A stretch of 64,000 nt of DNA from a virus (IMGVR_UViG_3300050501_000292), one strand, 5' to 3'; counted from the stretch's first letter, positions 1,260-50,700 are shown. Made by a program: numbers and translations. Notes: generated by a model not told the origin, from the sequence alone.

Positions 1260-1699
1260 ACCCTACCGATACCGACGACATGACTGCCATGGTCGAGAGC
1301 TACTTACGGGCTGCGCTCTGGACCTGGCTTGACGAGGACGGCGGAGCACCTTTCCCTGGTGACGAGGGATACGTGGACGTGACCGAAGTGTTCGACCTTC
1401 GATCCATCGTGAGCGCCATTCAGGACTGCATGGCGTTCTGCGACTACGTGCAAGACCAAGCCGATGAGAACGAAGACGACACCGGCCGTCAGTGGTGGCA
1501 GGCACGCGACGCGCTCCGCGACATGGCCCCTGAGCGGGCCGGTCACGATTTCTGGCTGACCCGCGAAGGTCACGGCGCGGGTTTCTGGGATCGCGGCCTA
1601 GGCATCGCAGGAGATCGGCTCAGCGATGCCGCGACGACCTTCGGAGGCGGCGATCTGTGGGTATCGCCCGGTGAACCCTGGTCAGCGACGCTCGGCTGA
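1256..1699 (+). CDS. Conserved uncharacterised phage protein (AGHDFWLTREGHGAGFWDRG motif)
   Basis: The GHDFWLTRxxHGxGFWD signature is recalled from small phage proteins; ATGA overlap. Confidence 0.75.
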   Translation: MNPTDTDDMTAMVESYLRAALWTWLDEDGGAPFPGDEGYVDVTEVFDLRSIVSAIQDCMAFCDYVQDQADENEDDTGRQWWQARDALRDMAPERAGHDFWLTREGHGAGFWDRGLGIAGDRLSDAATTFGGGDLWVSPGEPWSATLG

Positions 1700-1722
1700 C
1701 TTGCCAAGTCGCTTGACGTTCT
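1698..1722. promoter_or_regulatory. Operator-like palindrome GACTTGCCAAGTC plus second box with TTGACG at 12-bp period
   Basis: Perfect dyad 1698-1710, in the gap before a strong RBS. Confidence 0.65.
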
Positions 1723-1784
1723 GACGGTCGCCCGCGGCCCGGCTGGTTCGGACCGCGGCTCTGTCGCCAGAAAGGAGAGCAACC

Positions 1785-2234
1785 ATGTATGAGCGACACT
1801 ACGGCTATCTCTACGACCGTGATCGCACGGTCAAGGACGATGCCGCCAACATCCGTCGACACATCCGAAGCCTGGTCAAGGGTGGGATGTTGCCCGCGGA
1901 TTGGACCTACTCCGTCCGCTACCGCACCTTCTCCGGTGGATGCTCGATTGACGTGCAGGCAACGTCACCGCGGCCCATCTACGCCGCGGATCCGCGAAGC
2001 CAGGAGTGGGAGCTACATGCTGAGACCGGAGAGCATGTCCACGCGTGGATTGACAAGTACACGCGTCAGGCTCGCGCCGTCCGCGACGCGCTGACCGACC
2101 TGCACAACGGTCACAACCACGACGGGTCGGAAATCCAGGTCGACTACTTCGACGTCAAGTTCTACGGACAGGTGTCGATCACGACAACCGCCGGAGTGCC
2201 GGAGTACGTCGCGCCAGCGGAGAGCGGACAGTGA
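1785..2234 (+). CDS. LPD29-like (large polyvalent protein-associated domain) early protein
   Basis: YSVR..FSGGCSIDV and HNHDGSEIQVDYFDVKFY match the recalled LPD29 pattern; RBS AGGAGAGCAACC-ATG. Confidence 0.6.
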   Translation: MYERHYGYLYDRDRTVKDDAANIRRHIRSLVKGGMLPADWTYSVRYRTFSGGCSIDVQATSPRPIYAADPRSQEWELHAETGEHVHAWIDKYTRQARAVRDALTDLHNGHNHDGSEIQVDYFDVKFYGQVSITTTAGVPEYVAPAESGQ

Positions 2235-2470
2235 ACGATGCACAGACGTACCGGGCCGCCCACTTCGGCGGCCCATACGTCGCTCTCTGCCCCGATGGAG
2301 TCGTCCGCCATCGCGGCACGTTCCCGAGCCTGACTGCGGCCCACGACCACGCGGAAGCGTGCTGTATGGGCCGGCATCGCATCGTGCGGCCGGTCGCGCT
2401 GGTGGGCGGCCTGGCCCCGTCCGAGCCGGCCACGACCGCTATCGCCCGCGTGGGTGGCACCGATGGCTGA
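2231..2470 (+). CDS. Hypothetical protein
   Basis: GTGA overlap with upstream gene. Confidence 0.55.
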   Translation: MNDAQTYRAAHFGGPYVALCPDGVVRHRGTFPSLTAAHDHAEACCMGRHRIVRPVALVGGLAPSEPATTAIARVGGTDG

Positions 2471-2696
2471 GCACCGGGTCACCCGCGAGGATTGGCTGAG
2501 CGCCACACCCGCGCTCTGGATCGCTGACCCACCCACGGCCGGCGACCGGGTGAAGCTCATCGGTGGCCGCTGGCTGGTGGTTGTCGAGGTGCAGCCCGGG
2601 CGGCCCGGCCGATGGACGGCACGACTCCGAGCCGACGGAGAGAACCAGACGTTTACCGCTTGGCTGTACGTCCCATGGGCGGGGGCAGCACCATGA
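2463..2696 (+). CDS. Hypothetical protein
   Basis: ATG overlapping upstream stop; coupled chain. Confidence 0.55.
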   Translation: MAEHRVTREDWLSATPALWIADPPTAGDRVKLIGGRWLVVVEVQPGRPGRWTARLRADGENQTFTAWLYVPWAGAAP

Positions 2697-2968
2697 GCTG
2701 CCCCCGGTGCCGCGGCAGCCACGGGCCCGGCCCGTGCCCCCTACGTGGGACCGCTATCGCCCGCGTGCCCTCGAAGACGAAGCGCACGACGCTCGGCTTC
2801 ACCATCCGCGACGTTACGTTGCTGCACGCGGCTGTCACTTACTGGGCCGACCAGCCAGAGAACTACGAGGACGCCGAATCCGAGACGATCGCGGCGATGG
2901 CGCTTCTGGAATGGAGGCTGAGGCAGGCCGCGAGTCGTCTCGGATACACGTTGGGCGATCAGCCGTGA
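2693..2968 (+). CDS. Hypothetical protein with CxxC..H..C N-terminus
   Basis: ATGA overlap; MSCPRCRGSHGPGPC. Confidence 0.55.
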   Translation: MSCPRCRGSHGPGPCPLRGTAIARVPSKTKRTTLGFTIRDVTLLHAAVTYWADQPENYEDAESETIAAMALLEWRLRQAASRLGYTLGDQP

Positions 2969-3234
2969 GCACGCACCCCAACGCCGTCGAAACCATGAAC
3001 CGCGTCGCCCGATCACTGGGCGGCGCGGCTCATGTCGCCTACCTCAGCCGGGAGCTCATCGCCCAGGAGCGTGACCTTGCCGAGCTGGCCGTCGAGGTGT
3101 CCCAGCTCCTCGACGTGCTGGCCGGCGTGTTCGTCACGAACCCCGAGGAGCGCATCCACGCCCACATCCACGCCATCGACCGCATGATCGCGGCCCTGGC
3201 CCCGATCGACCCCGGAGAGCGTCATGGCCCGTAG
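2965..3234 (+). CDS. Hypothetical helical protein
   Basis: GTGA overlap; 3' part of track ORF 2563..3234. Confidence 0.55.
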   Translation: MSTHPNAVETMNRVARSLGGAAHVAYLSRELIAQERDLAELAVEVSQLLDVLAGVFVTNPEERIHAHIHAIDRMIAALAPIDPGERHGP

Positions 3235-3556
3235 CGACAGGCAATCAACCTTCGGCCCGCTCCGAGAGCGTCTCGTCGCCCACACCGACGCCGAACGCGA
3301 CATGGCCCGGCGCCGGCTCAGGGTCGCCCAGGCGGCGTTCACAGCGGCGTCAGACCCCTACTGGCAGGCCATCCGGGAGCGCCAGGCCGCCGCCGCCCAC
3401 GCCAACGACGTCGGCGTCGAGCAGACCGAGATCGCCCGCGTGTTCGGGCTGCGCGACCACAGCGCCGTGTCGCGCATGATCGCCCGGTTCCGGGGTGAGG
3501 CGGTAACCGCGGCGGAGAACCGGCGCAAGCGACGTGCGGAGCGGGTCACTCGGTGA
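3224..3556 (+). CDS. HTH DNA-binding protein
   Basis: QTEIARVFGLRDHSAVSRMI is HTH-like; GGAG RBS. Confidence 0.6.
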   Translation: MARSDRQSTFGPLRERLVAHTDAERDMARRRLRVAQAAFTAASDPYWQAIRERQAAAAHANDVGVEQTEIARVFGLRDHSAVSRMIARFRGEAVTAAENRRKRRAERVTR

Positions 3557-3560
3557 AGCG

Positions 3561-3764
3561 TTACTCCAGTCGGCCGGTCTCTCTCAGCCATGCCTCCACC
3601 TGCGGCCACAGCCACAGCAGCATCCCTTCGCGGACGACGATCGGCTCGGGGAACTCGGGGTGTCGGCGCCTCCAGGAGTGCACGACGTTCGCGTGCGACA
3701 GCTCGAGCCGGTCGGCGATGTCCGCCGCCGATACGAGGTCGCGCGGATCGATTTGGCCTGCCAC
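3561..3764 (-). CDS. AlpA/excisionase-like small HTH protein
   Basis: LVSAADIADRL..V.SWRRRHPEFPEP...LW.W.QV.AW is the AlpA/Xis pattern; TAGTTT -10 box 7 nt before GTG (leaderless-like). Confidence 0.75.
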   Translation of the reverse strand: MAGQIDPRDLVSAADIADRLELSHANVVHSWRRRHPEFPEPIVVREGMLLWLWPQVEAWLRETGRLE

Positions 3765-3790
3765 GACCCAGAAACTACGGCGAGGCCCTT

Positions 3791-3806
3791 GATTGCGTAC
3801 GCAATC
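3791..3806. promoter_or_regulatory. Perfect 16-bp palindrome GATTGCGTACGCAATC in a divergent promoter gap
   Basis: Seen directly; overlaps candidate TTGATT-N17-CAAGGT promoter. Confidence 0.6.
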
Positions 3807-3907
3807 GGGGGCAAGGTAGGGCCCGCCCGGATAGCTGGGCGCTGCTGTCCGGGGGCCGTTGGCCTGCCAGTCTCCGTGCCCCCGGACCAGCCCCGCAGGA
3901 GGAGAGC

Positions 3908-4066
3908 ATGAGGTTAGTCGTCGGCATGGCGTGGGTCGTCCTAGCGGCCCTGGCCTTCCTCGGAGGAGTGCACGTGGTCACCCACGGCCCCACCGGCGAC
4001 AAGGTTGACGAGCTACCGATCGAGTGCGTCCAGGCGGGCGTCGTTATCTGCGAGGGGATGCCATGA
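3908..4066 (+). CDS. Small membrane/secreted protein
   Basis: AGGAGAGC-ATG; hydrophobic N-terminal helix. Confidence 0.6.
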   Translation: MRLVVGMAWVVLAALAFLGGVHVVTHGPTGDKVDELPIECVQAGVVICEGMP

Positions 4067-4329
4067 CCGAAGCACGCAAGACCTCGGGCCCCGAGCTCGC
4101 CCGCCGGATGGGCGCCTTGGCCGACGAGCTCAAGGACGTTCCCGCCGAGTTGTGGGACACCTGCCCGGAGCTGCGCGAGGAGTCCCGACGGCTCGAGGGC
4201 GCTCTGGTGAAGCTCCGGCTCGACATCCCCGATCCGGGCAAGGTCGCTGGGGGCCGCATACCGCCGTGGGGTCCGACCCGGTCGCAAACCGCATTCCCTC
4301 AGGGGGGAGTGATTGCGAATGAGCCGTGA
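4063..4329 (+). CDS. Hypothetical protein
   Basis: ATGA overlap with upstream gene. Confidence 0.5.
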   Translation: MTEARKTSGPELARRMGALADELKDVPAELWDTCPELREESRRLEGALVKLRLDIPDPGKVAGGRIPPWGPTRSQTAFPQGGVIANEP

Positions 4330-4442
4330 GCAGACCGGCACCATGGCAGCCCATGGTGGGGACACCGGCCTGCCACCGGGAGCGGGACGGGGAACCCCCG
4401 CCTACCTCGTCCCGCTCATCCACCGGCAAGGAGGCTGGCGGA

Positions 4443-4781
4443 ATGAGTGACACACCCAGGCACTTGATGTCGGGGACCCGTCGCATCACCAACGAGGACC
4501 GGAGACGGGCGCTGCTGCACGAGATCCGGAACTCGCGGTCGCCGTTGACGATCACGCCGGGGATGCGCAAGGCGTTCGAGCAGCGCAAGGCCGAGGCCCG
4601 GAAGCGTCACCGCATAGGGCGGGCCTGCGACTCGTTCTTCACCGTCGTCTTCGCCGGTGGTGCTGTCGCGTCGCTCGTCATGCTGAGCGCCACGCGGCAG
4701 TGGGGGCTCGTGCCCGCGGTGGTCGTGTCCATCTTGCTGACCTACAAGGCATGGACCGGCGGGAGAACTAGAGCCATATGA
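4443..4781 (+). CDS. Membrane protein with two C-terminal TM segments
   Basis: AAGGAGG RBS; FFTVVFAGGAVASLVML and WGLVPAVVVSILL. Confidence 0.6.
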   Translation: MSDTPRHLMSGTRRITNEDRRRALLHEIRNSRSPLTITPGMRKAFEQRKAEARKRHRIGRACDSFFTVVFAGGAVASLVMLSATRQWGLVPAVVVSILLTYKAWTGGRTRAI

Positions 4782-4824
4782 CCGCGGCGCAGCCGGCTCT
4801 CCGCCGTCGGCTCCGCTGTGAAAG

Positions 4825-4873
4825 GAGGCCCGGGGCCGATCGTCATTAACTCTGGCGACCGGCCCCGGGCCTC
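4825..4873. terminator. Long hairpin, probable bidirectional terminator
   Basis: 14-bp perfect stem GAGGCCCGGGGCCG/CGGCCCCGGGCCTC plus inner stem, between convergent genes. Confidence 0.75.
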
Positions 4874-4884
4874 GAATGACCTTG

Positions 4885-5196
4885 TTACCTGGCGAGTTCG
4901 TCGACCCGCTCCTCCAGGATCTCGCACTTCTCGTAGAGCATCTTCTCGTAGTCCCGCATCGCCTCCATGCGGTCGAGCATCCGGAAGATCGATTTCTGCA
5001 AATCGTTCACCCAGGCGATGATGCCGAGCTGGCGTATCCGCAGGTAGCGGCCGTGGCGGTCGAGGCGCCAGGAGATCAGCCCGGCAAATCGCCTCGGCAG
5101 GGAACGCTCCCCAGTGGGACGTTTACCTCCTCGGGCTAGGACTCCCCCAGCTGTGACGCCGGCCACGATGATGACGACAATGCTCCGCCGTCCCAT
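4885..5196 (-). CDS. Membrane-anchored coiled-coil protein downstream of the recombinase
   Basis: AGAAAGG RBS 8 nt before ATG 5196; N-terminal hydrophobic segment. Confidence 0.55.
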   Translation of the reverse strand: MGRRSIVVIIVAGVTAGGVLARGGKRPTGERSLPRRFAGLISWRLDRHGRYLRIRQLGIIAWVNDLQKSIFRMLDRMEAMRDYEKMLYEKCEILEERVDELAR

Positions 5197-5308
5197 TCGG
5201 TCCGCCTTTCTGGTCTGATCCAGCCCACCACCAGATGCCCTTGACGTCGTATCACGCTTACAGACGTGCACGTTGCCTGCAATTGCGATCGCGTTACGAT
5301 CACGACTG

Positions 5309-6223
5309 TCAGTGCGCAAGTTGCTGGTCGGATTCGTCCAGCGCTGACAGATCCCACGCTGCCGGTGGCCGCCGCACGCTCAACCTGGCGACCACCGCCG
5401 CCGCCCGGGTCGTGTCCGCCGCCGCGTAGCCCTCGGTCGTCTTGATGTTGGCGTGGCCCATCACCTCGGCGGTCAGCAGGATGTCCCGCTCCTCGCGGTA
5501 GAAGTGCGTCCCGAACCAGTGGCGCAGCTGGTGCGCCGTCGTGCCCGGCGGCAGGTGCAGGTTGATGTAGCGGCTGATCGTCTGGGGGTGCAGCGGTGCC
5601 GCCCCCCGGCCGTCCAGGAGCCACTGCCGAGTGAACACCGGGCCCGAGCGCGGCAGGCCATGGCGTCGCAGGGCCTCGAGTGTCTCGGGGTGCAGCGGCA
5701 CGTAGCGGACCTTGTCGCCCTTGCCCTCCACGCGGAGCGTCATGTCCGGGATCGAGATGTCCTCGCGGGTCAGCCGGGACATCTCGACGCAGCGCAGGCC
5801 CTCGTAGGCACCGAGTGCCAGCCATGCCCGCATCCGGTCGTCGGCCCGGTCCATGGCCTCGGCCACCACCGCGTCGTCGGCGGGGCGGGGGAGGCGCCGG
5901 GGCACCTTCGGGTCGACGAGGTCGGCCGCCGGGTTCGACTTGGCCTGGCCGGCGCCCTGGGCCCACCCATAGAACGCCCGGAGGTGGCTGCGGTACGTGT
6001 GCCGGGAGCCGGGGGCGAGCCGGCCTCGGCGGCCTCGCCGTCCGTCCAGCCACTCCTCCAGGTCCAACGTGTCGAGCTCGAGGACGTGGCGGGGCTCGGC
6101 GTCGCGGGCCAGGGCGCGGACCTGGGCGATCCGTTGGCCGATCGTCCAGTCGCCGTCGCCGCAGCGTCGCTCGTGGGCACGGAACGCCCGGATCAGCTCC
6201 TCGAGTGGGGGATAGCCGCTCAT
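5309..6223 (-). CDS. int: Tyrosine recombinase/integrase, XerC-like, no arm-binding domain (304 aa)
   Basis: Catalytic R (GLRCVE), K (EGKGDK), HxxR (HQLRH), H (MGHAN), Y (TEGYA); GAGGAGG RBS supports the 6223 start. Confidence 0.93.
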   Translation of the reverse strand: MSGYPPLEELIRAFRAHERRCGDGDWTIGQRIAQVRALARDAEPRHVLELDTLDLEEWLDGRRGRRGRLAPGSRHTYRSHLRAFYGWAQGAGQAKSNPAADLVDPKVPRRLPRPADDAVVAEAMDRADDRMRAWLALGAYEGLRCVEMSRLTREDISIPDMTLRVEGKGDKVRYVPLHPETLEALRRHGLPRSGPVFTRQWLLDGRGAAPLHPQTISRYINLHLPPGTTAHQLRHWFGTHFYREERDILLTAEVMGHANIKTTEGYAAADTTRAAAVVARLSVRRPPAAWDLSALDESDQQLAH

Positions 6224-6252
6224 CGGGAAACATCCTCCTCGGGTAACAGGAA

Positions 6253-6390
6253 TCTTGTCAAGAGACTTGCCTGAATCCCTGTCGCCCGGAGAAGGACGTT
6301 TCCGCCGCTTCACGTGCGCTGACCTGCGATGACGCTCGACGAGCGCCGTCCGTATTCCCAGTAGGAATACGACAGGGATCTTGCCAAGTC
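6253..6390. promoter_or_regulatory. Operator-box pairs (6253/6265, 6367/6379) and dyad CGTATTCC-N5-GGAATACG (6351-6371)
   Basis: Seen directly between repressor and recombinase. Confidence 0.6.
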
Positions 6391-6410
6391 GACTGTGGTG
6401 ATAGAGCCGT

Positions 6411-6815
6411 TTAGGGCTCCTTGCATTCCTCCAGCAGGTCGTTCAGGTCCTCACGGTCCAGCATGTCCAACGCCACCCGGGCCTGGCGCGCCAGCGACGG
6501 CGACAACCACCGCAACGGCACCCCGTACAGCTCCGCCAGAGCCAGAACCACCACCAGATCCGCCCGCTCCTCGGCCACCACACCCATCTCGTACTGGCGG
6601 ATCTGCTCGTGCGACGGGTTCCCCCGCCCCCGCTCCGTGTTGCCCAACTTCTCCTGTATCAGCCCGGCGACACGCGCCAGACTGAAGCCAGCCTCCTCGC
6701 GGGCCCTGCGCAACCGCCGACCGAACTCCGTCGAAGGTTGCGACTGCGACCTCGCGTACACGCCTCGAGGCATCCTCCGTGCTCCCATCACGTCAGCCGC
6801 CCACTGTCCTGGCAA
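6411..6815 (-). CDS. XRE/Cro-CI family immunity repressor (start uncertain)
   Basis: FGRRLRRAREEAGFSLARVA..SHEQIRQYE..LAELYGVPLRWL; divergent from the lytic operon. Confidence 0.85.
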   Translation of the reverse strand: MPGQWAADVMGARRMPRGVYARSQSQPSTEFGRRLRRAREEAGFSLARVAGLIQEKLGNTERGRGNPSHEQIRQYEMGVVAEERADLVVVLALAELYGVPLRWLSPSLARQARVALDMLDREDLNDLLEECKEP

Positions 6816-6921
6816 GAAGTCTGGCAGTAACCCTAGGGGTATGTCTAGTCACTCCTGACGGACCACCCCCAAAGACCTCTTGCCAGAAGTCTTGACAGGA
6901 AACCTGCCGTGGGGCCATGCT
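6806..6921. promoter_or_regulatory. Divergent switch region with box pairs (6806/6818 minus, 6878/6890 plus) and candidate TTGACA-N18-CATGCT promoter
   Basis: Seen directly; TTGACA at 6892-6897. Confidence 0.65.
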
Positions 6922-6988
6922 GGAAGTCCACAGCGGGGAGCTGCGCCCCCCGCAACCCCCGGCCTACTTCCCTCAAAGGACTTCCCCT

Positions 6989-7474
6989 GTGGCAAAGCTG
7001 ATCCGTCTGACCTCCGGCAACGTCGCCATCGTTGACGCCGAGGACTACGACTGGCTTAGCCGATGGGCATGGCACCGTCAGACGGGGCCCTACGCGGGAC
7101 GACACCGCCACAAGGCTGACGGACCAGGACCGTCCACGATCCTCATGCACCGCGTAATTCTCGGGCGTCACAAGGATCTAGTCGGACTCCAGGTCGACCA
7201 TCGCAACAACTACGGCCTCGACAACCGCAAGGCCAATCTGCGTGCTGCTACGCGAAGCCTCAACGGAGCGAATCGACGTCCTTCGAGGTGCGCTACTACA
7301 AGTCGCTACCGCGGTGTCAACGTCCGCCTCGGACGGCGACCTCGCGCCCACATCTACATCAACCATCAGCAGGTCTACCTCGGCAGCTTTCCGACCGAGG
7401 AAGAAGCCGCCCGTGCCTACGACGCGGCAGCCCTTGAAGCATTCGGCGAGTTCGCTCGCGTCAACTTTCCCTAA
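6989..7474 (+). CDS. HNH endonuclease with C-terminal AP2 domain
   Basis: MHRVIL..VDHRNNYGLDNRKANLR and YLGSFPTEEEAARAYDAAALEAFGEFARVNFP; AAAGGA RBS before GTG 6989. Confidence 0.92.
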   Translation: MAKLIRLTSGNVAIVDAEDYDWLSRWAWHRQTGPYAGRHRHKADGPGPSTILMHRVILGRHKDLVGLQVDHRNNYGLDNRKANLRAATRSLNGANRRPSRCATTSRYRGVNVRLGRRPRAHIYINHQQVYLGSFPTEEEAARAYDAAALEAFGEFARVNFP

Positions 7475-7488
7475 GAAAGGTCTCAGCC

Positions 7489-7746
7489 ATGGGCGGTGAG
7501 ATCGAAGCTCGGCCGCCGGCCGACGCGTACTACCTCGCGTTGGCCGCTGAGGCGATCGTCGAGCTGCACAGGTGCAAGCCGAGCAAGGAGGTTGCCTTGA
7601 TCTTCTGCGGAGACGACGAGGTGCCCGTCGCCTGGCCCACCACCCAGGCCCGCTGCATGATCCGCACCATGAACCACCTCGGAGCACGGTGGCTCGGCGT
7701 CTGCGAAGTCCCGGCCGCCGCCGAGGTCCTGGCGGCATGGACCTGA
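7489..7746 (+). CDS. Hypothetical protein
   Basis: AGAAAGG RBS; in operon. Confidence 0.55.
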   Translation: MGGEIEARPPADAYYLALAAEAIVELHRCKPSKEVALIFCGDDEVPVAWPTTQARCMIRTMNHLGARWLGVCEVPAAAEVLAAWT

Positions 7747-8063
7747 AGCCCCGAGTCCGCTACGCCCGAGCGCTCCACCTCGGCGATGTCAACGGCCGGC
7801 AGTACAGCCACACCGAGATCGCCAAGATGCTCAGCGTCAGCGCCCAGACCGTGCACCGCTGGATCGACGAGTCAGTCGCCGAGGAACGCCGGGCCATCTG
7901 CCCCCTCTGCGGCCGGCGCTGCATCGTCATGGAGCCCGTGCGCGCCGACCGGGGCGACACCTACCCGATGCACCTCGCCAAGGGGGAGCGCCGGCAGCGG
8001 TACTGCGAAGCCGGCGGGTGGCTGGTGGAAGACGACGAGTACGTGGAGGCCAAGACATCGTGA
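7737..8063 (+). CDS. HTH plus zinc-ribbon DNA-binding protein
   Basis: YSHTEIAKMLSVSAQTVHRWI; CPLC..H..C. Confidence 0.7.
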   Translation: MDLKPRVRYARALHLGDVNGRQYSHTEIAKMLSVSAQTVHRWIDESVAEERRAICPLCGRRCIVMEPVRADRGDTYPMHLAKGERRQRYCEAGGWLVEDDEYVEAKTS

Positions 8064-9349: not shown

Positions 9350-11406
9350 CCGCCATCGATCCCGGGCCCCTCTCGCCCTCCACGGTCCGCCTCACCCCGT
9401 CGCGGATCCGCCGGGCTCTGCGCCGCAAGGTCCGGCCCCACTTCGTCAACGATCCGCACCTTTGGATCGTCGAAGGCGACGTCGACGACGCCTACCCCAC
9501 CTATGTCGTCCGCTACGACCCCGGCACCGGCGACCACGCCTGCTCCTGCTACGACACCGGCGGCCGGCTGAACCGCGGCAACGTCGGCCGGCGCATCGGC
9601 TGCACCCACGTCGTCGCCGTCGTCATGAAGCTCAAGCGCCAAGCCGCGATCGAGCGCCGCAACGCCGAACGGAAGCGTGCCGTCCCGCCGACCCCTACCG
9701 TCCCGACACCCGACGACCCGCGCCTCCACTACCACCCCGACACCGGCCAGCTCGTCCAGCCGCCGTTCCCCGACTGGGTGCAGACGTTCCGCCCCCACCA
9801 GTGGCAGGCCACCGAGGCGATCATGGAGGCGTTCGACGACGGCGCCCGGGTCGTCATGCTCCAGGCGCCCGTCGGCACCGGCAAGACCCTCACCGGCGAA
9901 CTCGTGCGCCGGCTCATCGGCGGCAACGCCCTCTACGTGTGCTCCACCAAGACCCTCCAGGACCAGGCGGCCCGCGACTTCGACTACGCCCGGGTCCTCA
10001 AAGGCCGGGCCAACTACCCGACGTTGTCCGGCGGCCGGGGCGCGTGGGGCCAGGTCGTCGACGCCGCCGCCAACACCGTCACCTGCGCCGACTGCACCGT
10101 CTCCGGCTCCGACCCCGACTGCCGGTGGTGCCACGACACGGTGCGCTGCCCCTACCGGCTCGCCCGGGGCCGGGCCCAGACCGCCCCCCTCGCCGTCCTC
10201 AACACCGCCTACGCGCTCACCGACTGGAACAAGGGCGGTCAGCGCTTCGCCGGCCGGGACCTCTGCATCATCGACGAGGCCGACCTCCTCGAAGGCGAGC
10301 TGCTCTCCCAGGTCGAGGTCACGATCTCGAAGCGCCGCCGGGAGACCCTGCGCATCCCGCCGGCCGCCCCCAAGACCGTGTCCCGCAAGGACCCGCAGGG
10401 AACCTACGACGCCTGGCGCGAGTGGGCGGTCGCCGAGGCCATCCCCCGGGTCGCCGAGACCCTCTCGGTCCTGCCGACCGCGCAGTCGGCGACACCCCGC
10501 GAGCTCCGGCTCCGCAAGTCCTACCACGACCTGCTCGAACGGCTCCGCCTCCTCGCCCGGGAACTGCCTCAGGGCGGCTGGATACATGACGATTACAACA
10601 CTGGCGGGGTCACGTTCCGGCCCGTCCAGGTGCACGGCTGGGGGTCGACGATGCTGTGGCCGCACGCCCGGCGGTTCCTGCTGATGTCCGGCACGATCAT
10701 CTCCGCCGACGAGATGGCCGAGTCGCTCGGGGTGCCCGACGGCTACCGGCTCGTCGACATCCCGATGACGTTCCCCGCTGCGAACCGGCCCGTCAACGTC
10801 TGCGCGCTCGTCGAGATGTCCCACAAGACCGTCGACACCGACTGGCCGAAGATGCTCAAAGGCGTCGCCGGGGTCCTCGGGGTGCACCCCGAGGAGCGCA
10901 TCCTCGTCCACACCGTCTCCGGCAAGCTCGCCGAGTACCTGGTGCGCAACCTGCCGCCCTCCGCCCGCGCCGGCCGGGGCATCTACACCTACCGCTCCGG
11001 CGCCTCCGGGGAACGCGACCAGGCGCTCGCCGCCTACAAGGCCGACCCCCGCGGCGTCCTCATCGCGCAGTCGATGGAGCGCGGCGTCGACCTGCCCGAC
11101 GAGCTGTGCTCGGTGATCGTCGTCTGCAAGATCCCGTACCCGAACCTCGGCGACAACCGCACCAAGGCCCGGCTCTACGCCACGAAGGGCGGCGAAGCCT
11201 GGTACGCGGTCAACACCGTCCGCTCGCTGGTTCAGATGACCGGCAGGGGAGTGCGCCACGAAGGCGACCGCTGCACCGTCTACGTCCTCGACCACGCGTT
11301 CACGACCCGGCTGTGGCGCAAGAACAAGCGCCTCCTGCCCGAATGGTGGTGCGACGCCGTCAACTGGCACTACCCGACGTACCGGCTGACCCGCCAGAGG
11401 TCTTGA
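9346..11406 (+). CDS. dinG: DinG/XPD-family SF2 helicase with N-terminal SWIM zinc finger
   Basis: SWIM CSC..CTH; Q motif FRPHQ; Walker A APVGTGKT; Fe-S-type Cys cluster; IIDEAD; LMSGT; ERGVDLP; QMTGRGVRH. Confidence 0.88.
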   Translation: MTAIDPGPLSPSTVRLTPSRIRRALRRKVRPHFVNDPHLWIVEGDVDDAYPTYVVRYDPGTGDHACSCYDTGGRLNRGNVGRRIGCTHVVAVVMKLKRQAAIERRNAERKRAVPPTPTVPTPDDPRLHYHPDTGQLVQPPFPDWVQTFRPHQWQATEAIMEAFDDGARVVMLQAPVGTGKTLTGELVRRLIGGNALYVCSTKTLQDQAARDFDYARVLKGRANYPTLSGGRGAWGQVVDAAANTVTCADCTVSGSDPDCRWCHDTVRCPYRLARGRAQTAPLAVLNTAYALTDWNKGGQRFAGRDLCIIDEADLLEGELLSQVEVTISKRRRETLRIPPAAPKTVSRKDPQGTYDAWREWAVAEAIPRVAETLSVLPTAQSATPRELRLRKSYHDLLERLRLLARELPQGGWIHDDYNTGGVTFRPVQVHGWGSTMLWPHARRFLLMSGTIISADEMAESLGVPDGYRLVDIPMTFPAANRPVNVCALVEMSHKTVDTDWPKMLKGVAGVLGVHPEERILVHTVSGKLAEYLVRNLPPSARAGRGIYTYRSGASGERDQALAAYKADPRGVLIAQSMERGVDLPDELCSVIVVCKIPYPNLGDNRTKARLYATKGGEAWYAVNTVRSLVQMTGRGVRHEGDRCTVYVLDHAFTTRLWRKNKRLLPEWWCDAVNWHYPTYRLTRQRS

Positions 11407-11436
11407 CAGAGTTCTTGTCAAGAGACTAGACAGAGA
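11401..11436. promoter_or_regulatory. Triple 12-bp-period box array TCTTGACAGAGT/TCTTGTCAAGAG/ACTAGACAGAGA
   Basis: Seen directly; includes TTGACA upstream of 11470. Confidence 0.7.
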
Positions 11437-11469
11437 TACCGCAACAAATCCCCCTAGGAGGGACCCCTT

Positions 11470-14588: not shown

Positions 14589-14761
14589 GCGAGACCCGCA
14601 TCCCCGTCGAGCGCGTCGACGAGCACGGCCGCGTCACCGGCAAGGGCACCGCCCGCGCTCGGGGTGTCACCTTCGACGACTACCGCACCTCCACAGGCGC
14701 CGAGCTCAAGCTGCGGCCCGGCGAGTCCTTCGTCGTGTCGGTCGTGGTGGAGGACCTGTGA
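14585..14761 (+). CDS. Hypothetical protein
   Basis: GTGA overlaps at both ends. Confidence 0.5.
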   Translation: MSETRIPVERVDEHGRVTGKGTARARGVTFDDYRTSTGAELKLRPGESFVVSVVVEDL

Positions 14762-18158: not shown

Positions 18159-18848
18159 GTGCTCGTAGCACCCTCCGAACCCAAGCCCCTCCAGGCGCTC
18201 GGCCTCGTCACCTCGCAGGCCGAGCGCAAGGGCGCCGACTTCCTGTGGGCGGCGCTCCCCGTCGGCCTCGTCGGCGTGCAGCGCAAGCAGTTCCCTGGCG
18301 ACTTCATCGCGTCGGTCGGCGACGGCCGACTCGAGAAGGAGCTCGGCCAGATGCGAGCCCTGGACGTCGCAGTGCTACTACTGGAGGGCCGGGGCACCTG
18401 GACGACCGACGGCGAGCTGATCCATTCCTATGGCCAGCGCTGGACGCGCTCCGGCCACCGCAAGTTCCTCTGCTCGGTGCAGGCCCAGGGCGTCTGGGTG
18501 CTGACCACCGAGAACCTCGACGACACCGTCCGGGCTCTCCACGATCTCGTCGACTGGTCCCGCAAGCCCGCCCACAACGCGACCCGGTCCCGGCCGGCGG
18601 CGCGGCGTGACGGCTGGGGCCGCATCACCGACCGGACCTACGCCATCCACCTGCTGCAAGGGCTGCCCGACGTCGGGCCCGAGCTCGCCACCCGGCTCTA
18701 CGACCACTTCGGCCGCTGCCCGCTGCGCCTCACCGTCACCGAGCAGGAGCTCCGGGGTGTGCACGGCATCGGCAAGAAGTACGCCGCCCAGCTGGCGAGG
18801 ATCTTCGGCGGTGACTTGTCCAGTGAGCTGTCAGGAGAGCTGCGATGA
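18159..18848 (+). CDS. ERCC4/XPF-family nuclease with HhH motifs
   Basis: GAD..QRK...DFIAS..DGRL..LLLEG; LQGLPDVG and GVHGIGKK. Confidence 0.85.
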   Translation: MLVAPSEPKPLQALGLVTSQAERKGADFLWAALPVGLVGVQRKQFPGDFIASVGDGRLEKELGQMRALDVAVLLLEGRGTWTTDGELIHSYGQRWTRSGHRKFLCSVQAQGVWVLTTENLDDTVRALHDLVDWSRKPAHNATRSRPAARRDGWGRITDRTYAIHLLQGLPDVGPELATRLYDHFGRCPLRLTVTEQELRGVHGIGKKYAAQLARIFGGDLSSELSGELR

Positions 18849-25110: not shown

Positions 25111-25169
25111 CTCTCACCTGCATCCCCATCGCATCGTCCAACAACCTACCTGCCCAGCGTCTTGCCAAG

Positions 25170-26258
25170 TCATGACGTCGCCTCGTAGACCCCTGTGACC
25201 CAGAACTCGTCGCCGTCGTCCCAGTTGAACGGGTTGCTGCCATCGAAGCCGACGGTGGTGCCGGCGTTCACGGCCCGGGACACCCGGTCGGGCTGCGAGC
25301 TGGTGATGATGCCGGCGCCCGCGTAGCGCGCCGGCCCAGTGTCCTTCTGGAGCCAGCAGCCGAACGTCTTCTGGGCGTTGGGGTTCTGGAAGTTGGCCGT
25401 GAAGGGCAGCCCGATCCCGATGAGCGCGGTGACGTCGCCGCCGGTGCCGAGCTTGAAGCCGGCGTGGAGGGTGACGGTGCGGCCGAGCTTCTTGTACTCG
25501 CAGTAGGCCAGGCCGCCGGTCCCGAGCGTGACCCCGAACAGCGTGGGCACGAAGCTGCTGACCCACAGCGTCTCGGGGGCGTCGATGAGGACGTCCCAGC
25601 CGGAGTCGGTGGCGTTGCGGATCTTGACCGAGCGGGTGGCGTTCGTGTCGACCCAGAGCCGACCGTTGCCGACCGCGCCCGGGTCGCCGGTCTGCACGTA
25701 CAGGAACCGGGCGTCGGCGGCCAGCTTGGCAAGAGCGACGGACGCGTCGACGAGCTTGGAGCCGTTGACCCCGGCGATCTTCCCGTCGGTCACCGCGAGG
25801 TTCTGGATGTTGGCCGTGGCCACCGCGTCGTCGGCGAGCTCGCTGTTCCCGACCGAGTCGACGCCGAGCATCGCGGCGTCGTGGAGGATCGCGGCGTGGT
25901 CGCTCGAGCGGAGGTACTGGGTGTGGTCGTGGCGGGTCGTGTCGAAGATGTGGGCGGAGAGCTCGGCCATGAACCGGCCGGCGATCGTGTGGCGGATCTG
26001 GGTGTTGGCGCCCCACGTCTGGCCGACGCCGCCGTAGCCCCGGGTGCAGTTCTGGAGCGTCTTGCCGGAGCGGGTCGTGACCAGGATCTTCTCGATCGAG
26101 TCTCCGGCCTCCTTGTCGCCGAGCGTCGCGATGAACGGGCCGATGGTGCCGTCGGGCCAGCCGGATTCGTCCTTGATGGTGATGGAGGTGTCATTCGGCC
26201 CGATGCCGGTCTGCAAGCCGGTGATGACTGCCAGGTCGGAGAACTCGAGGCGCGGCAT
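25170..26258 (-). CDS. Tail fibre/receptor-binding protein
   Basis: 10-aa shaft-like repeats (VATANIQNLA VTDGKIAGV); YKKLGRTV.L..FKLGT fibre-head motif. Confidence 0.7.
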   Translation of the reverse strand: MPRLEFSDLAVITGLQTGIGPNDTSITIKDESGWPDGTIGPFIATLGDKEAGDSIEKILVTTRSGKTLQNCTRGYGGVGQTWGANTQIRHTIAGRFMAELSAHIFDTTRHDHTQYLRSSDHAAILHDAAMLGVDSVGNSELADDAVATANIQNLAVTDGKIAGVNGSKLVDASVALAKLAADARFLYVQTGDPGAVGNGRLWVDTNATRSVKIRNATDSGWDVLIDAPETLWVSSFVPTLFGVTLGTGGLAYCEYKKLGRTVTLHAGFKLGTGGDVTALIGIGLPFTANFQNPNAQKTFGCWLQKDTGPARYAGAGIITSSQPDRVSRAVNAGTTVGFDGSNPFNWDDGDEFWVTGVYEATS

Positions 26259-33128: not shown

Positions 33129-33175
33129 TCTAGACAGGAAAGTTGGCGAATGACTTGACACGTTCCATGTGGAAC
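33129..33175. promoter_or_regulatory. Triple 12-bp-period box array plus dyad GTTCCA-TG-TGGAAC; candidate head-gene promoter (minus-strand TAGAAT)
   Basis: Seen directly in the 450-bp gap. Confidence 0.6.
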
Positions 33176-34340: not shown

Positions 34341-35194
34341 CCTGTCGCTCCGAACATCTCGAGGATCGGGCCGGCGGTCTGCGTGAGGCGCTCCCAGGCG
34401 TCGTCGCTGCTGCGCCACTCGGGCTGCATCCGCGCCAGGCGCTCAGACTCAGGGATCGTCATGGGCCGCAGCCCTTCCTTGGGCGACTTGAAGGAGATGA
34501 CCGGCGACCAGCGACGGTCCATCAGGTCGATCTGGTCGGGCGACGTGCCCAAGATCTCGGCGATCGCGTTGCGGTACGGCGTAAAGAACTGGGCGGGGGT
34601 GAGGCCGGCGTCGATGTCCTCGGTGAGGTGGGGAAACCGGGCCTTGGCTAGCCCCGCGAACTGGGCCTGCACCGCGCTGATGTCAGCCGCCCCGGCAGCG
34701 ATGCGCCGGGCCCACTGCCACGCCTGCTGGTCGTTGACCGGGATGAGGTAGGAGGCGGCGACGGCGCGGACGTCGGCCATCGTCTTGCCAAGAAGCCCCT
34801 GGCCGGCGGCGGCGGGCGTGTAGCGGGACTCGGCGACGATCGCGAGGCGGATCTCGTCGTCGTTCCAGCCGAAGCGGTTGGCGCTGGTGGCGAGCTGGCC
34901 GAGCCGCTTCTGGCTGATCGGGATGCCGAGCTGGCCGGACTTGAGGGCGATGGAGAGCGCGGTCTCGTCGACCCGCTGCTCGGCGGTGGCCTGGTCCTGG
35001 GCGACGAGGGCGTCCCAGCGCCGTGACGAGTCCGAGGTCTGCCGCCACCAGTCGGTCTTCGAGATGGCGCCCCGGAGACGGGCTTCGTCCCACCCTTCCT
35101 CGGCGGCACGCAGGATGATGGGTCCGATCTCCGGCTGGTCGATTAGCCAGCCGAGGTACCCGTAGAGGGTCTTGGCGTCGTCGCGGGTGCTCAC
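34337..35194 (-). CDS. Virion protein, paralog of the C-terminal domain of 35418..36767
   Basis: Colinear similarity, e.g. LYGYLGW..GPIILRAA.EGWD.ARL, LAKARFPHL, WSPV..FK. Confidence 0.75.
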   Translation of the reverse strand: MSTRDDAKTLYGYLGWLIDQPEIGPIILRAAEEGWDEARLRGAISKTDWWRQTSDSSRRWDALVAQDQATAEQRVDETALSIALKSGQLGIPISQKRLGQLATSANRFGWNDDEIRLAIVAESRYTPAAAGQGLLGKTMADVRAVAASYLIPVNDQQAWQWARRIAAGAADISAVQAQFAGLAKARFPHLTEDIDAGLTPAQFFTPYRNAIAEILGTSPDQIDLMDRRWSPVISFKSPKEGLRPMTIPESERLARMQPEWRSSDDAWERLTQTAGPILEMFGATG

Positions 35195-37788: not shown

Positions 37789-38234
37789 TAGTACGACTCC
37801 TGGAGCGCGGTCGACTTATGTGCAAGCCAAGCAATCGCCCGACGAAGAAGTTCGGGGTCATCTCGGAACTTGCCAAGTGCCGTATTGCAGTTTGTGCAGA
37901 GAAGCCCTCGGATGCGTCCCGTTAGATGGTCATGGTCGACGGCAAGGCGCGTGTGGTTCCCCACTGGAAGCCCTTGGCAGATTCCGCAAACCCCATTCTG
38001 ACGTTCGAGTATGACCTCATACTCGCCGGGTTCAAGTCCGTACTTCCCCGAGCGTTGCCACTGCTTGGTCAATGTGTTCTGACACGTCTTGCAAGAGGAT
38101 TGGTGACCACCACCCTGTCGTCTCGCCCTATGGAAATCCGTAAGCAACTTCACGCGTTTACACGTGCGGCATCGCTTCTTCCCCAGAGAGCGCAACTTTC
38201 GTTGAACCCTGCGATCAAGCGGCAACAGGGTCAT
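37788..38234 (-). CDS. Endonuclease VII-family HNH nuclease
   Basis: CRTC..CKTC; QNGVCGIC..LAVDHDH.TG.IRGLLC..CN.ALG; lower GC. Confidence 0.9.
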   Translation of the reverse strand: MTLLPLDRRVQRKLRSLGKKRCRTCKRVKLLTDFHRARRQGGGHQSSCKTCQNTLTKQWQRSGKYGLEPGEYEVILERQNGVCGICQGLPVGNHTRLAVDHDHLTGRIRGLLCTNCNTALGKFRDDPELLRRAIAWLAHKSTALQESY

Positions 38235-46106: not shown

Positions 46107-46327
46107 CAGTCGGCCGGCGGATCACCCGCGCTCGCGCCCGACGGGCCGCGCCACGTACCGCCGCTGGAGTGGGTGGGCCGCATCGACGGGGTGGGCTTCA
46201 CGTCGCCCGGCTGCTCCACCTGGCCACCGGACGCGGCCTGGGACGCGTTGACGAGACCGGCCGGGGCGTGCTCGCGGGCGGGCCGGACCTTGTTCGGCTG
46301 GTGCTGCGAGTTCGGGTCAATCGCCAT
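46106..46327 (-). CDS. Low-complexity hypothetical protein
   Basis: TGATG overlaps at both ends. Confidence 0.5.
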   Translation of the reverse strand: MAIDPNSQHQPNKVRPAREHAPAGLVNASQAASGGQVEQPGDVKPTPSMRPTHSSGGTWRGPSGASAGDPPAD

Positions 46328-46452
46328 CAGTAGCTACCTCTCGGCCGCGCGGTCCGGGTGGTCGCCCGCGTCGAGCGCCGGGCGGTGGTGGTGGTGCGGC
46401 GTGGCCGAGCCGTCTTGCGACGGGTCGGCGAGTTGCGACGGTTCACCTTCAC
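46327..46452 (-). CDS. Arg/Thr-rich basic peptide (41 aa, absent from track)
   Basis: GGGAGG RBS, GTG start, TGATG coupling; MKVNRRNSPTRRKTARPRRTTTTARRSTRATTRTARPRGSY. Confidence 0.55.
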   Translation of the reverse strand: MKVNRRNSPTRRKTARPRRTTTTARRSTRATTRTARPRGSY

Positions 46453-46468
46453 GGCGACCTCCCAGGTC

Positions 46469-46480
46469 TCTTGACAAGAG
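46469..46480. promoter_or_regulatory. Perfect operator box CTCTTGACAAGAG just after the terminase stop
   Basis: Seen directly (dyad spans 46468-46480). Confidence 0.65.
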
Positions 46481-46485
46481 TGCGG

Positions 46486-48635: not shown

Positions 48636-49186
48636 TCAGGCCACCCGGCGGCCGTTGACTGCGACGAGCTGGAGGTGGCGCTGTGGTGCCTCGGCCTGCT
48701 GGCGCTTCGGGGGCCGGACCGGCTGGCCGCCGTTCGGGGGCGGCGTGGTCCGCGACCAGACGACCTGGAGGAACCTGCGGCCGACGCCGAGGCGCTTGCG
48801 GGCGCAGTGGACCCCGAGGCCGAGGCCGCGTACGAGGTCTTCTTCGAGGGGCCGGTTGCAGAACATGCACCGCTCGAACGGGCCGTGTGCCGCGAAGAAG
48901 CGCAGCGCGGAGGCGATGGGGAACCGGTCGGCGGTCGACAGGTTGCGCAGCGCGTCCCGCGAGATGTCGGCGTCGTAGTGGAGCCGCAGCTTGTGGTAGC
49001 GCTCGCCGTCGGAGCGGTCGCGCCACGAACCCGGGGTGATGAGCTGCGCGTAGCGGCCGGTGTGACCCCGGTTCCACTGGACGTAGAAGACCTGGAGGCT
49101 GAGCTCGTCGTCGTCGTCCATCCGGCGGTAGAAGCCCACGGCGTCGCAGTCGAGCAGTGGGGTCGCGGTCTCCCACATGGTTCTCA
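48636..49186 (-). CDS. Protein with DUF6011-like zinc finger
   Basis: CMFCNRPL......GLG..C; AAGGA RBS before ATG 49186. Confidence 0.65.
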
Positions 49187-49188
49187 TT

Positions 49189-49980
49189 CTAGGTTCCTTC
49201 CGCGAGGCGGCGGGCACGATTCAGGATCAGCTGGCCGGAGCGGGTCGACCAGGCGGGCATGTCGTGGTCGAGGAGCCGCTCCGCGGGGACCTCGTTGAGC
49301 AGCCCGCGGAGCTCTTTGATGTCGTCGTCGTCGAGGTCGGCGATCTCCTCGTAGGCGTCGATGAAGCGCGCGACGGCGATCTCCTCCTGGACCCCGTTGA
49401 GCTGACGGTCCGGGAAGCCGGCAAGGTAGCGGGCGACGACGAGGCGGTCGGGCCGTCCGATCTGCGCCGTGATCCAGTCGGTGTCGTGCTGGTCGATGCG
49501 CCAGCGCCATGCCTTGCAGGCTGTGACCCGTTCGACCGCGCCCCGGACTGTTTCCTGCTCCCAGAGTTCGAGCGCCTCGAGGAGCGGGAGAAGTTGGAGC
49601 TCGCGTCCCCGGGGCCGGAGGTTGGACTCCGCGAGGAACAGGTAGGGGAGGTCGGTGCGTCGCACGTAGACGTGGTTGACGCCATGGAGCCGGGCGAGCC
49701 GTGTCGCCGCGTCCCGGGCCTTGTCGTCGATCGGCCCGAGCCACAGGTTGTCGCGGGCGGCTTGGTCGTAGACCCGTCGCGTGGTCTGCCGGATGCGCCA
49801 GTGTCGGCAGCCGGGGCAGGCCCAGGTGTTGCGGTAGGTGGCGATCATGCGGAACGCCCCGCGCGTGACGCCTTCGATGAAGCGCCGGCAGCCCTGGCGG
49901 TGGGCTGTGAGGGTGTCGTCCTCCCATGGAAATTCCGGCTTTCGCGGAATAGGAAGTTCCGGCTTCTTCGTGTGCGTCAC
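49189..49980 (-). CDS. Rep-like/replication initiator candidate
   Basis: TWACPGC resembles the WxCPxC motif of RCR Reps; adjacent repeats and RHH gene; HUH motifs not clearly present. Confidence 0.4.
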   Translation of the reverse strand: MTHTKKPELPIPRKPEFPWEDDTLTAHRQGCRRFIEGVTRGAFRMIATYRNTWACPGCRHWRIRQTTRRVYDQAARDNLWLGPIDDKARDAATRLARLHGVNHVYVRRTDLPYLFLAESNLRPRGRELQLLPLLEALELWEQETVRGAVERVTACKAWRWRIDQHDTDWITAQIGRPDRLVVARYLAGFPDRQLNGVQEEIAVARFIDAYEEIADLDDDDIKELRGLLNEVPAERLLDHDMPAWSTRSGQLILNRARRLAEGT

Positions 49981-50092
49981 GGGACGGCCCGAGCGGCCGA
50001 ACTTCCGGCTTCTGCGGAATAGAGATCAACTCCTATTCCGCGAAAGCCGGAAGTTTCGGGGTTCCCCCCTATTCCGTGGAAGCCGGAAGTTC
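49929..50092. repeat. Four 25-bp repeats, consensus (G/A)AA(C/A)TTCCGGCTT(T/C)NNCGGAATAG(G); two direct (49929, 49999), two inverted (50032, 50068), plus a partial copy at 49953
   Basis: Seen directly; each unit has an internal TTCCG-N7-CGGAA dyad. Confidence 0.9.
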
Positions 50093-50260
50093 TCATGCCG
50101 CGGCACGGCGCTGGAGGTACTCGAGCAGGGCGATGCGCAGAATCGCGGACCTGGTCAGGCCGGCGCGGTTGACGCTGACGTCGAGCTTGGCGAGCTCGGC
50201 GCGGTTCAGGTAGGTGGCGACCTCGCGGTCGCGGTGGGTCGTCGTCTTCGGACGGGGCAT
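50093..50260 (-). CDS. Ribbon-helix-helix (CopG/Arc-like) regulator (55 aa, absent from track)
   Basis: MPRPKTTTHRDREVATYLNRAELAKLDVSVNRAGLTRSAILRIALLEYL fits beta-strand plus two helices with G.TRS.ILR.AL.EYL. Confidence 0.8.
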   Translation of the reverse strand: MPRPKTTTHRDREVATYLNRAELAKLDVSVNRAGLTRSAILRIALLEYLQRRAAA

Positions 50261-50293
50261 AGACAACTATTATGCCAAGTAAGTTGCCATGTT
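50258..50293. promoter_or_regulatory. Triple 12-bp-period box array over the RHH start and -10 region
   Basis: CATAGACAACTA/TTATGCCAAGTA/AGTTGCCATGTT. Confidence 0.6.
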
Positions 50294-50700
50294 GTAGCGC
50301 GCATCCGTGAGGCGACCCCATGGGTGGGGGAGGGGGCCCGGGGTCGGCACAGTGGGGGGTCGGACGACACCGAGCGGCCCCGAAATCCGCCGTGATGCGC
50401 GCTAACTCGGGCTAGCAAGCGCTCGCGATGCGCGAAATTAGGGCTCTGACCTGCACATTCTGTATTCGCGCCGCAATACGGAACGGTGTGTGGGCCAGAT
50501 TAATGCACGCGCATCACTTATCGCGGTGAGAGTGCCAGCTAGTCACCATGCGCCTATTCCCTTCCCCCTCCGGATAGGGCTCGAGGCGAGCTCAGCCTGG
50601 CCCGGATTTCTCAGGTTAACGCCGTTACCTACCTTGACTTCCCAGGTCACGCCATGTGAGAGTACGTCACAGATGTCTTGTCAAGAAGCATGAGGAGAGC
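50294..50700. other. Non-coding divergence region; candidate packaging/terminus region and early promoter
   Basis: No convincing ORF; G-runs at 50322-50359; TTGACT at 50634; operator box at 50676. Confidence 0.45.

Follow-up and report, generated by a model that had tools for sequence, protein, structure and literature searches.

What reads the short palindromic boxes that are scattered over the genome of the virus IMGVR_UViG_3300050501_000292, and what purpose might they serve? The DNA analyzed (the window, 64,000 nucleotides with a GC content of about 69%) consisted of a 51,436-bp unit that wraps round, with positions 1–12,564 recurring exactly at +51,436. An earlier reading, made by a model from the sequence alone and without database searches (the sequence-only reading), had proposed a genome-wide array of 11-bp boxes, WCTTGNCAAGW, in tandem with a 12-bp period, through which one phage regulator would silence early, middle and late promoters. 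The boxes, their surroundings and their counterparts in related phages were analyzed here. We consider it probable that they serve the prophage's own immunity repressor as operators, the most likely repressor being a protein of 120 amino acids (aa) of the XRE family, with a helix-turn-helix (HTH) fold, encoded beside the integrase gene.

The box array proved to be real. Nine exact matches to WCTTGNCAAGW were found per 51,436-bp unit, namely the seven boxes previously named as strong (1699, 6253, 6379, 11413, 25160, 46469 and 50676) and two solitary ones (34783 and 37868). The whole window held 13 matches, four of which were second copies arising from the wrapping of the unit, against 0.06 expected, and none of 100 shuffles reached 13. 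The core CTTGNCAAG occurred at 10 places per unit (about 0.2 expected). When a symmetrised position weight matrix (PWM) made from the nine perfect boxes was applied, 7 of the 18 positions at ±12 from the strong boxes fell in the top 1% of the genome, compared with 0–1 at each other offset from 7 to 42. Independently of these seed boxes, pairs of units with a PWM score of at least 0 were 12 bp apart in 10 cases versus 0.81 expected, and 0–4 pairs were found at the other distances between 6 and 30. The 12-bp tandem period was thereby confirmed for a unit of 11 bp, in arrays 2–4 units long. The degenerate partners listed by the sequence-only reading were phased collectively, but those at 1711, 6367, 25148 and 50664 were weak when taken singly (score ≤0.3), and the box placed at 6806 was present with its start at 6807.

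When the 12 intergenic arrays were aligned, a weaker TGnCA core was visible in both flanking units, with G at +11 in 12/12 arrays, T at +10 in 8/12, C at +13 in 9/12, C at −11 in 10/12 and A at −10 in 8/12. The flanking units were symmetric around the strong unit, no orientation bias was observed, and sites were present ahead of genes on both strands. The link to the stoperators of phage L5 that had been drawn through TGTCAAG was judged coincidental, given these symmetric sites without orientation bias and two candidate regulators that did not resemble deposited phage proteins. The hexamer CTAGAC had only three genomic occurrences, each of them a variant unit within an array. A reading of the box as an RNA hairpin was rejected, since a 5-bp stem with a 1-nt loop is unable to form.

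The gene map of the window consisted of calls based on codon usage and on GC at third codon positions, and a refined gene list was used for the non-coding fraction. Non-coding DNA made up 5.2% of the genome, yet 7 of the 9 perfect boxes lay there (p=3e-8), as did 12 of the 19 sites with a PWM score of at least 9 (p=1e-11), which agrees with the mainly intergenic or junctional placement proposed earlier. The box at 37868 was intragenic, as had been claimed, and the gene in question was an unannotated endonuclease-VII-like open reading frame (ORF). Near-consensus intragenic sites were also located at 2048, 25724, 32339 and 47412. The solitary intragenic boxes had no flanking units and all used the Leu codon CTT, which accounts for 2.6% of Leu codons; because of this rare codon, selection at the DNA level is suggested to maintain them.

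Two arms diverged from a 445-bp control region (50260–50705). The plus-strand arm extended from 50705, through the wrap, to 23172 and carried small early genes, a helicase, an ERCC4-like nuclease, a GH25 lysozyme and HNH endonucleases. The minus-strand arm ran from 50260 down to 23223, with the gene of a ribbon-helix-helix (RHH) protein, the terminase, a portal-like gene, the gene of a 1649-aa protein, a WhiB gene, the major head protein and small terminal genes. Within the plus arm lay a minus-strand island formed by the tyrosine integrase gene and the XRE-family HTH gene, which makes the phage a temperate one. The densest arrays flanked the XRE gene: two were situated in the region from which this gene and the early-right operon diverge, where they covered both predicted promoters as multi-unit arrays in an inverted arrangement, and one lay just past the stop codon. 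A search of this divergent region for a candidate operator other than the boxes found none. Further arrays (1699, 11401, 18814, 25148, 33129 and 46457) occupied junctions within the replication, structural and lysis operons. The distribution, which takes in early, replication, integrase, late and lysis junctions, fits the silencing network under one phage regulator that the sequence-only reading had envisaged. A perfect hairpin at 6347–6368 (CGTATTCC...GGAATACG), downstream of the XRE stop codon, adjoined box 6379; its first arm, GTCGTATTCC, and the following 16-nt block, CGTCATCGCAGGTCAG, were conserved in the related locus L028. This hairpin may terminate XRE transcription or belong to attP.

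To place these sites in an evolutionary frame, related phages were compared. Megablast and tblastn of the window against 50,697 deposited phage genomes did not find a near relative, the closest deposited terminases (from Streptomyces phages) showing 24–26% identity to the large terminase of the window. Near-identical variants of the phage were present in several metagenomes (L001 and L005–L009 among them) and were too similar for conservation statistics; L009 differed from the window at 49 positions, none of them in a box. In L001 and L008, the first early gene (50705–51238) was replaced or diverged, with a mosaic break a few bases past the start codon (50712), and the control region and box 50676 were kept. 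Both also showed an A-to-G change at 50673, by which the weak unit 50664 comes to match the consensus better. First terminase scans of genome and metagenome collections gave nothing useful, and a word-indexed terminase search then yielded 84 relatives, from which syntenic loci were taken at 51–77% terminase identity. Relatives were binned with metagenome-assembled genomes (MAGs) of Acidimicrobiales/Acidimicrobiia and one of them had a DUF5753/DUF397 pair, for which reasons the host probably belongs to the Actinomycetota. No further contig of the L011 phage was found among the contigs of MAG G002. The more distant G001/L002 (41% terminase identity) had one box only, and its RHH genes lay elsewhere.

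The core CTTGNCAAG was not found in any of the syntenic loci, which had dispersed motifs of their own at corresponding positions. In L011, GCACA-N5-TGTCC was found 6 times (0.9 expected), in the control region, on either side of the RHH gene and just past the stop codon of the terminase. In L028/L019, the closest relative, the motif was CTGTGNCA (8 versus 2.35 expected), and it was paired at 12 bp both in the XRE/early region and at the RHH promoter. The L028 unit TGTGTCAAGA was present in three copies, syntenic with the window boxes 11413, 6878/6890 and 6253, and the array at 6253 was the positional homologue of L028 TCTTGACACAT. At the position of the array over the RHH start, L019/L028 carried TGTGACATAAT with their own unit type, and sites syntenic with the array behind the terminase, of other sequence, were found in L011, L019, L022, L024 and L026. 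Pairwise alignments of the XRE-proximal regions revealed box-for-box homology with concerted changes, the window having CAAG where L028 has CACA. Positions kept together with a concerted change of sequence are the pattern expected of operator/regulator pairs during the divergence of immune specificities.

Three of these relatives, L028, L022 and L032, used the operator GACAC-N5-GTGTC (ideal form TTGGACAC-N5-GTGTCCAA), with a distance of exactly 12 bp between the cores GGACA and TGTCC. Allowing at most one mismatch, L032 and L022 had 6 copies each (about 1.2–1.3 expected), all intergenic. The array at 11401–11423 of the window, TTGACAG-agttc-TTGTCAA, had the same architecture. The shorter GTGTCC had also been considered as the shared half-site; it was not enriched in whole-locus statistics, and the full dyad was adopted instead. 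Additionally, a junction element, GTGTCC-N6/7-AGACA followed by a ribosome-binding site (RBS) and ATG, was noticed after the terminase gene and the gene of about 1650 aa (L019 11909/20240, L022 12050/20457, L011 6517 and L026 4259), and in L022 it took the form of two dyads, operator-like and separated by 23 bp. Directly after the terminase, behind the operator, both the window (46327–46452, Arg/Thr-rich) and L011 (6540–6662, a Lys/Ala-rich repeat) had a small, very basic ORF.

The sequence-only reading had left the choice of the binder between the XRE protein and the RHH protein, and the comparison of relatives now favoured the former. In an AlphaFold2 model, the XRE protein formed a helical XRE-type bundle with HEQIRQYE as helix 3. 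Its homologues in L028, L022 and L032 adjoined int as in the window, kept the divergent layout and had a common third helix, RETIRRYE. The first late-arm genes of the same three relatives differed, encoding a 53-aa RHH protein (SLHVTVT), a 58-aa RHH protein (RLVVCIR) and a 133-aa protein with an RHH-like N-terminus. In the window, the XRE helix (HEQIRQYE), the RHH strand (EVATYLN) and the operator (WCTTGNCAAGW) were all unlike those of the three. Over these four genomes, the predicted recognition helix of the XRE protein co-varied with the operator and the putative DNA-contact strand of the RHH protein did not; the XRE protein is preferred because L028, L022 and L032 share helix and operator while their RHH contact strands are unrelated. 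Since the cores of GACAC-N5-GTGTC lie 12 bp apart in the relatives that share the XRE helix, the 12-bp period most likely represents the distance between the two half-sites of a repressor dimer of the XRE family (cI-like).

Several observations weighed against this assignment, and most of them would suit the 55-aa RHH protein (50093–50260). If the latter were the binder, the beta-ribbon of one dimer would occupy each TGnCA core and neighbours 12 bp apart would bind cooperatively, as in Arc, CopG, MetJ and ArtA, the protein repressing its own gene and silencing the other promoters. The Pfam matches of the XRE protein were marginal (HTH_3, 23.2 bits with a cut-off of 23; HTH_31, 24.2 bits, below the cut-off of 27), whereas the RHH protein matched RHH_1 above the cut-off (25.3 versus 20.5 bits). 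The XRE model was moderately confident (predicted local distance difference test, pLDDT, 68.5) and had an unusually long loop between helices 2 and 3. The co-variation rests on four genomes, and in one of them, L028, GACAC-N5-GTGTC was found only 3 times versus 1.7 expected (at most one mismatch; all intergenic), so that it is loosely the same operator; the enriched L028 word TGTGNCA was not enriched in L022, the enriched words of the two being non-identical despite matching XRE helices. The most conserved part of the weak units was the symmetric 5-bp core TGnCA, and the solitary perfect 11-bp palindromes looked selected and apparently functional; both would be expected from one small two-fold symmetric RHH dimer per unit, and short arrays of 2–4 units suit small dimers as well. 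ArtA provides a precedent, with one dimer on consensus sites and a dimer of dimers on a degenerate double site (PMC2777438). Furthermore, the leaderless promoter of the RHH gene lay under three units, the RHH beta-strand differed in every relative, as did the details of the motif, and all RHH-bearing relatives had a dispersed motif, whereas no recurrent motif was found in the 13-kb loci of L025 and L027, which apparently lack an RHH gene. Nevertheless, we regard the RHH protein as an unlikely binder. Three relatives combine one operator and identical XRE helices with unrelated RHH contact strands and, in one case, another protein architecture, and GACAC-N5-GTGTC is an inverted repeat of 15–21 bp with asymmetric half-sites, typical of an HTH dimer. 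The XRE protein would moreover be left without an operator in its own divergent region, and a repressor encoded by the first gene of the late operon that blocks internal late junctions would make an awkward circuit. The RHH gene itself is predicted to belong to the box regulon whichever protein binds.

Two further readings gave the boxes to other factors. They could be operators shared by the XRE (cI-like) protein and a Cro-like early protein, such as the 108-aa HTH protein encoded at 7737–8063, or be bound by the latter alone. In lambdoid phages, cI and Cro use common operators, and the gene at 7737–8063 had HTH_23/HTH_17-type matches and belonged to the operon divergent from the XRE gene; however, these matches were under the Pfam cut-offs and nothing specific ties the protein to the boxes, which makes this reading improbable. 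Finally, the boxes could be promoter elements, either a TTGACA-like −35 for the host RNA polymerase or the site of an activator or a sigma-associated factor made by the phage, for example its WhiB. TTGACA or TTGTCA was present in some units (6890, 11401 and 46469), boxes 6890 and 6253 each coincided with a plausible −35, and a WhiB gene was present (35191–35421). Against this, plain TTGACA was not enriched (11 versus 7.8 expected), and with the sites oriented by transcription no −10-like hexamer was found at a fixed offset, so that simple TTGACA −35 boxes, the alternative that the sequence-only reading had set against its own proposal, did not explain the array. A sigma-70 consensus scan returned no canonical promoter, the palindromic sites stood ahead of genes on both strands, and their sequence shifted among close relatives, as the specificity of the host polymerase would not. 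According to the site, boxes fell on the −35, the spacer, the −10, the start site or the transcribed region. Because the arrays overlap varying promoter parts or sit at operon junctions, the boxes are classed, from their placement, as operators and not as promoter elements, the latter reading being very improbable.

Database searches added little to the choice of binder. The XRE and RHH proteins had no match by tblastn in the 50,697 phage records. The sole match in an orphan search with the XRE protein was a 98% variant, and a scan of viral contigs with the XRE alignment returned only unrelated low-GC cI-like repressors. A fold search with the XRE model gave the N-terminal domains of lambda cI, C.Csp231I and TP901-1 CI as top matches, all weak (E > 0.3), and no match at E≤0.001 was found. 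An exhaustive HMMER search with the RHH protein detected one homologue with 52% identity, P0005, which had a restriction-modification context, another beta-strand and no boxes.

For binding, dimer stoichiometry, repression and roadblock activity of the favored XRE repressor, we infer the following scheme. A repressor dimer would bind the basic site, made up of two half-sites that are each centred on TGnCA and spaced by 12 bp. The strong half-site of this phage would have turned self-complementary (WCTTGnCAAGW) and, because it could then pair with a weaker half-site on either side, arrays of 2–4 units would arise. Of the approximately 12 arrays, one group covers or closely follows predicted promoters, namely those of int, of the repressor gene, of the early-left and early-right/replication operons and of the RHH/late operon; the others sit at junctions within the replication, structural and lysis operons. 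Occupied promoter sites would block initiation by promoter occlusion, junction and intragenic sites would act as orientation-independent roadblocks, and a single protein would keep the entire prophage silent. The coordinates of the sites and of the genes concerned are collected in Table 1.

Table 1. Arrays, solitary boxes, candidate binders and associated features of the window.
Feature	Position	Strand	Remarks
XRE-family HTH protein, 120 aa	6411..6773	-	Adjoins int, divergent from early/replication operon; third helix HEQIRQYE (residues 55–62); favored binder
RHH (CopG/Arc-type) protein, 55 aa	50093..50260	-	First late-arm gene, leaderless; alternative binder
Array between genes 1256–1699 and 1785–2234, plus-strand arm	1699..1721	.	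Perfect box ACTTGCCAAGT and weak unit with TTGACG 12 bp downstream
Array just upstream of integrase start (6223, minus strand)	6253..6287	.	Perfect box and 2 weaker phased units; overlaps TTGACA −35 candidate
Array 22 bp downstream of XRE stop codon, beside hairpin 6347–6368	6367..6401	.	Candidate block to read-through into int
Phased array over predicted XRE promoter	6807..6853	.	Box 6807, unit 6819, CTAGAC variant unit 6843
Triple phased array, inverted relative to 6807–6829	6878..6912	.	Box 6890 holds TTGACA −35 of predicted rightward early/replication promoter
Three-unit array between helicase gene and gene 11470–12390	11401..11435	.	Syntenic with L028 2915–2935
Two-unit array at end of ERCC4-like gene	18814..18836	.	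Overlaps RBS of gene 18845–19072
Two-unit array abutting stop of gene 25170–26258	25148..25170	.	Upstream of small-gene block 24886–25110
Three-unit array	33129..33163	.	Downstream of stem-loop terminator-like element, upstream of scaffold-like and major-head genes
Array directly after terminase stop	46457..46479	.	16 nt before start of small Arg-rich ORF 46327–46452
Three weak units on leaderless RHH/late-arm promoter	50258..50292	.	Over start codon, extended −10 (TGGCATAAT) and spacer
Perfect box and weak unit	50664..50686	.	Just downstream of predicted early promoter, about +6 to +17 from start site
Solitary perfect box within gene 34337–35194	34783..34793	.	Coded CTT CTT GGC AAG, rare CTT Leu codon
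Solitary perfect box in unannotated endonuclease-VII-like ORF (37788–38234, minus strand)	37868..37878	.	
Solitary near-perfect box GCTTGGCAAGA within gene 25170–26258	25724..25734	.	Uses CTT codon
Predicted early promoter	50634..50663	+	TTGACT(50634)-18-GAGAGT(50658), tgtGAGAGT; basis: consensus match only
Tyrosine integrase	5309..6223	-	Promoter region predicted to be under box control
Helicase gene	9346–11406		Plus arm

A wider picture is offered tentatively. A small cI-like XRE repressor may run a stoperator-style genome-wide network of symmetric sites in uncultivated phages of Actinomycetota, with a self-complementary half-site, such that one perfect 11-bp box would nucleate a dimer extendable to either side and would serve as an orientation-independent roadblock even in genes, at a rare-codon cost; between sister phages, a dozen sites would have changed specificity together. 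The sister genomes, with conserved positions, shifted sites and matching helix changes, provide a testable specificity code, HEQIRQYE versus RETIRRYE. They also offer orthogonal repressor/operator pairs for high-GC hosts and, if the picture is true, a natural series for the study of the evolution of immunity specificity.

Other features of the genomes were observed outside the box network. A second repeat family, TTCCG-N7-CGGAA in 24-bp repeats, was found at 49929–50092, between the RHH stop codon and gene 49189–49980, in 4–5 copies and both orientations. Repeat clusters of other sequence occupied the same position in L011 (ATGTCCGCTTTTC), L022 (GCGACATT) and L025 (AATGTCCGGTTTCT). This family was considered as a part of the box network and discarded, being local, co-varying in the relatives and persisting in L025, where the RHH gene was not found; the repeats probably either bind one of the conserved proteins of 263 and 183 aa or have a role in packaging or replication. 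Ahead of several early genes of L022 (3850, 6067, 7395 and 9951), a 12-nt element that included the RBS, ACCAACCGGAGG (coding strand), resembled the start-associated sequences of cluster K mycobacteriophages. The GH25 lysozyme gene (16568–17530) was placed on the early/replication arm, away from the small genes that end the late arm, and genes of homing-type nucleases were inserted at operon junctions (6989–7474, HNH+AP2; 14758–15225, HNH_3; 37788–38234, endonuclease-VII-like). The WhiB-family gene of the late arm was flanked by two paralogous genes, and in L032 a WhiB gene (7750–8148) was directly upstream of the terminase.

Among known systems, the yefM-yoeB operator consists of two short palindromes with a hexameric core, 12 bp from centre to centre, one strong and one weak, bound cooperatively (PMC4803016). 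The arrays of the window shared its strong-plus-weak sites and its 12-bp spacing, whereas yefM-yoeB is a single autoregulated toxin-antitoxin promoter, with another protein fold and no dispersed network. The short symmetric tandem units, strong and weak, which suggest cooperativity, were also reminiscent of RHH regulators (MetJ met-boxes, Arc/Mnt, CopG and ArtA of pSK41), and ArtA is one small RHH regulator acting at many promoters of one mobile element (PMC2777438). However, the analogy with the met-boxes and the polymerisation of the RHH protein put forward by the sequence-only reading were not borne out: the arrays comprised only 2–4 units, the period was 12 bp and not 8, the RHH protein did not co-vary with the operator and no corepressor logic was evident.

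In stoperator systems, one immunity repressor acts at many genome-wide sites in the promoters and short intergenic gaps of both arms, and site and repressor co-evolve to give new immune specificities; the stoperator itself is an asymmetric 13-mer, oriented along with transcription, and its binder is a monomer that possesses two DNA-binding domains (PMC9283540, PMC6550527, PMC10276819). Like those of L5/cluster A gp71 and of the Streptomyces phages R4, phiJoe and phiScoe, the sites described here are many and dispersed in promoters and intergenic gaps, with 12 intergenic arrays plus solitary intragenic sites. Unlike the L5/cluster A and R4-like stoperators, they are symmetric 11-bp palindromes in 12-bp phased arrays, with no orientation, and the two-domain monomer of L5 gp71 has its counterpart in a candidate binder of 120 aa, an XRE protein with a single HTH and no detectable similarity to deposited phage proteins.

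The layout around the candidate repressor corresponded to a lambda-type cI/XRE switch, in which the repressor gene adjoins int and diverges from the early operon, several operators in the divergent region overlap both promoters, and the two half-sites are about one helical turn apart; in L022, the two operators of a pair are 23 bp from each other. It differed from that switch in that operators were also present at about eight further junctions, including those of the structural and lysis operons, and in the self-complementary half-site, which makes the arrays readable in overlapping registers. What is known of genome-wide stoperator networks comes mainly from cluster A mycobacteriophages and R4-like Streptomyces phages, with asymmetric sites and monomeric repressors; the present comparison suggests that an ordinary dimeric repressor of the XRE/cI type independently reached the silencing of a whole prophage with symmetric, extendable sites, in a lineage represented only by metagenomes.

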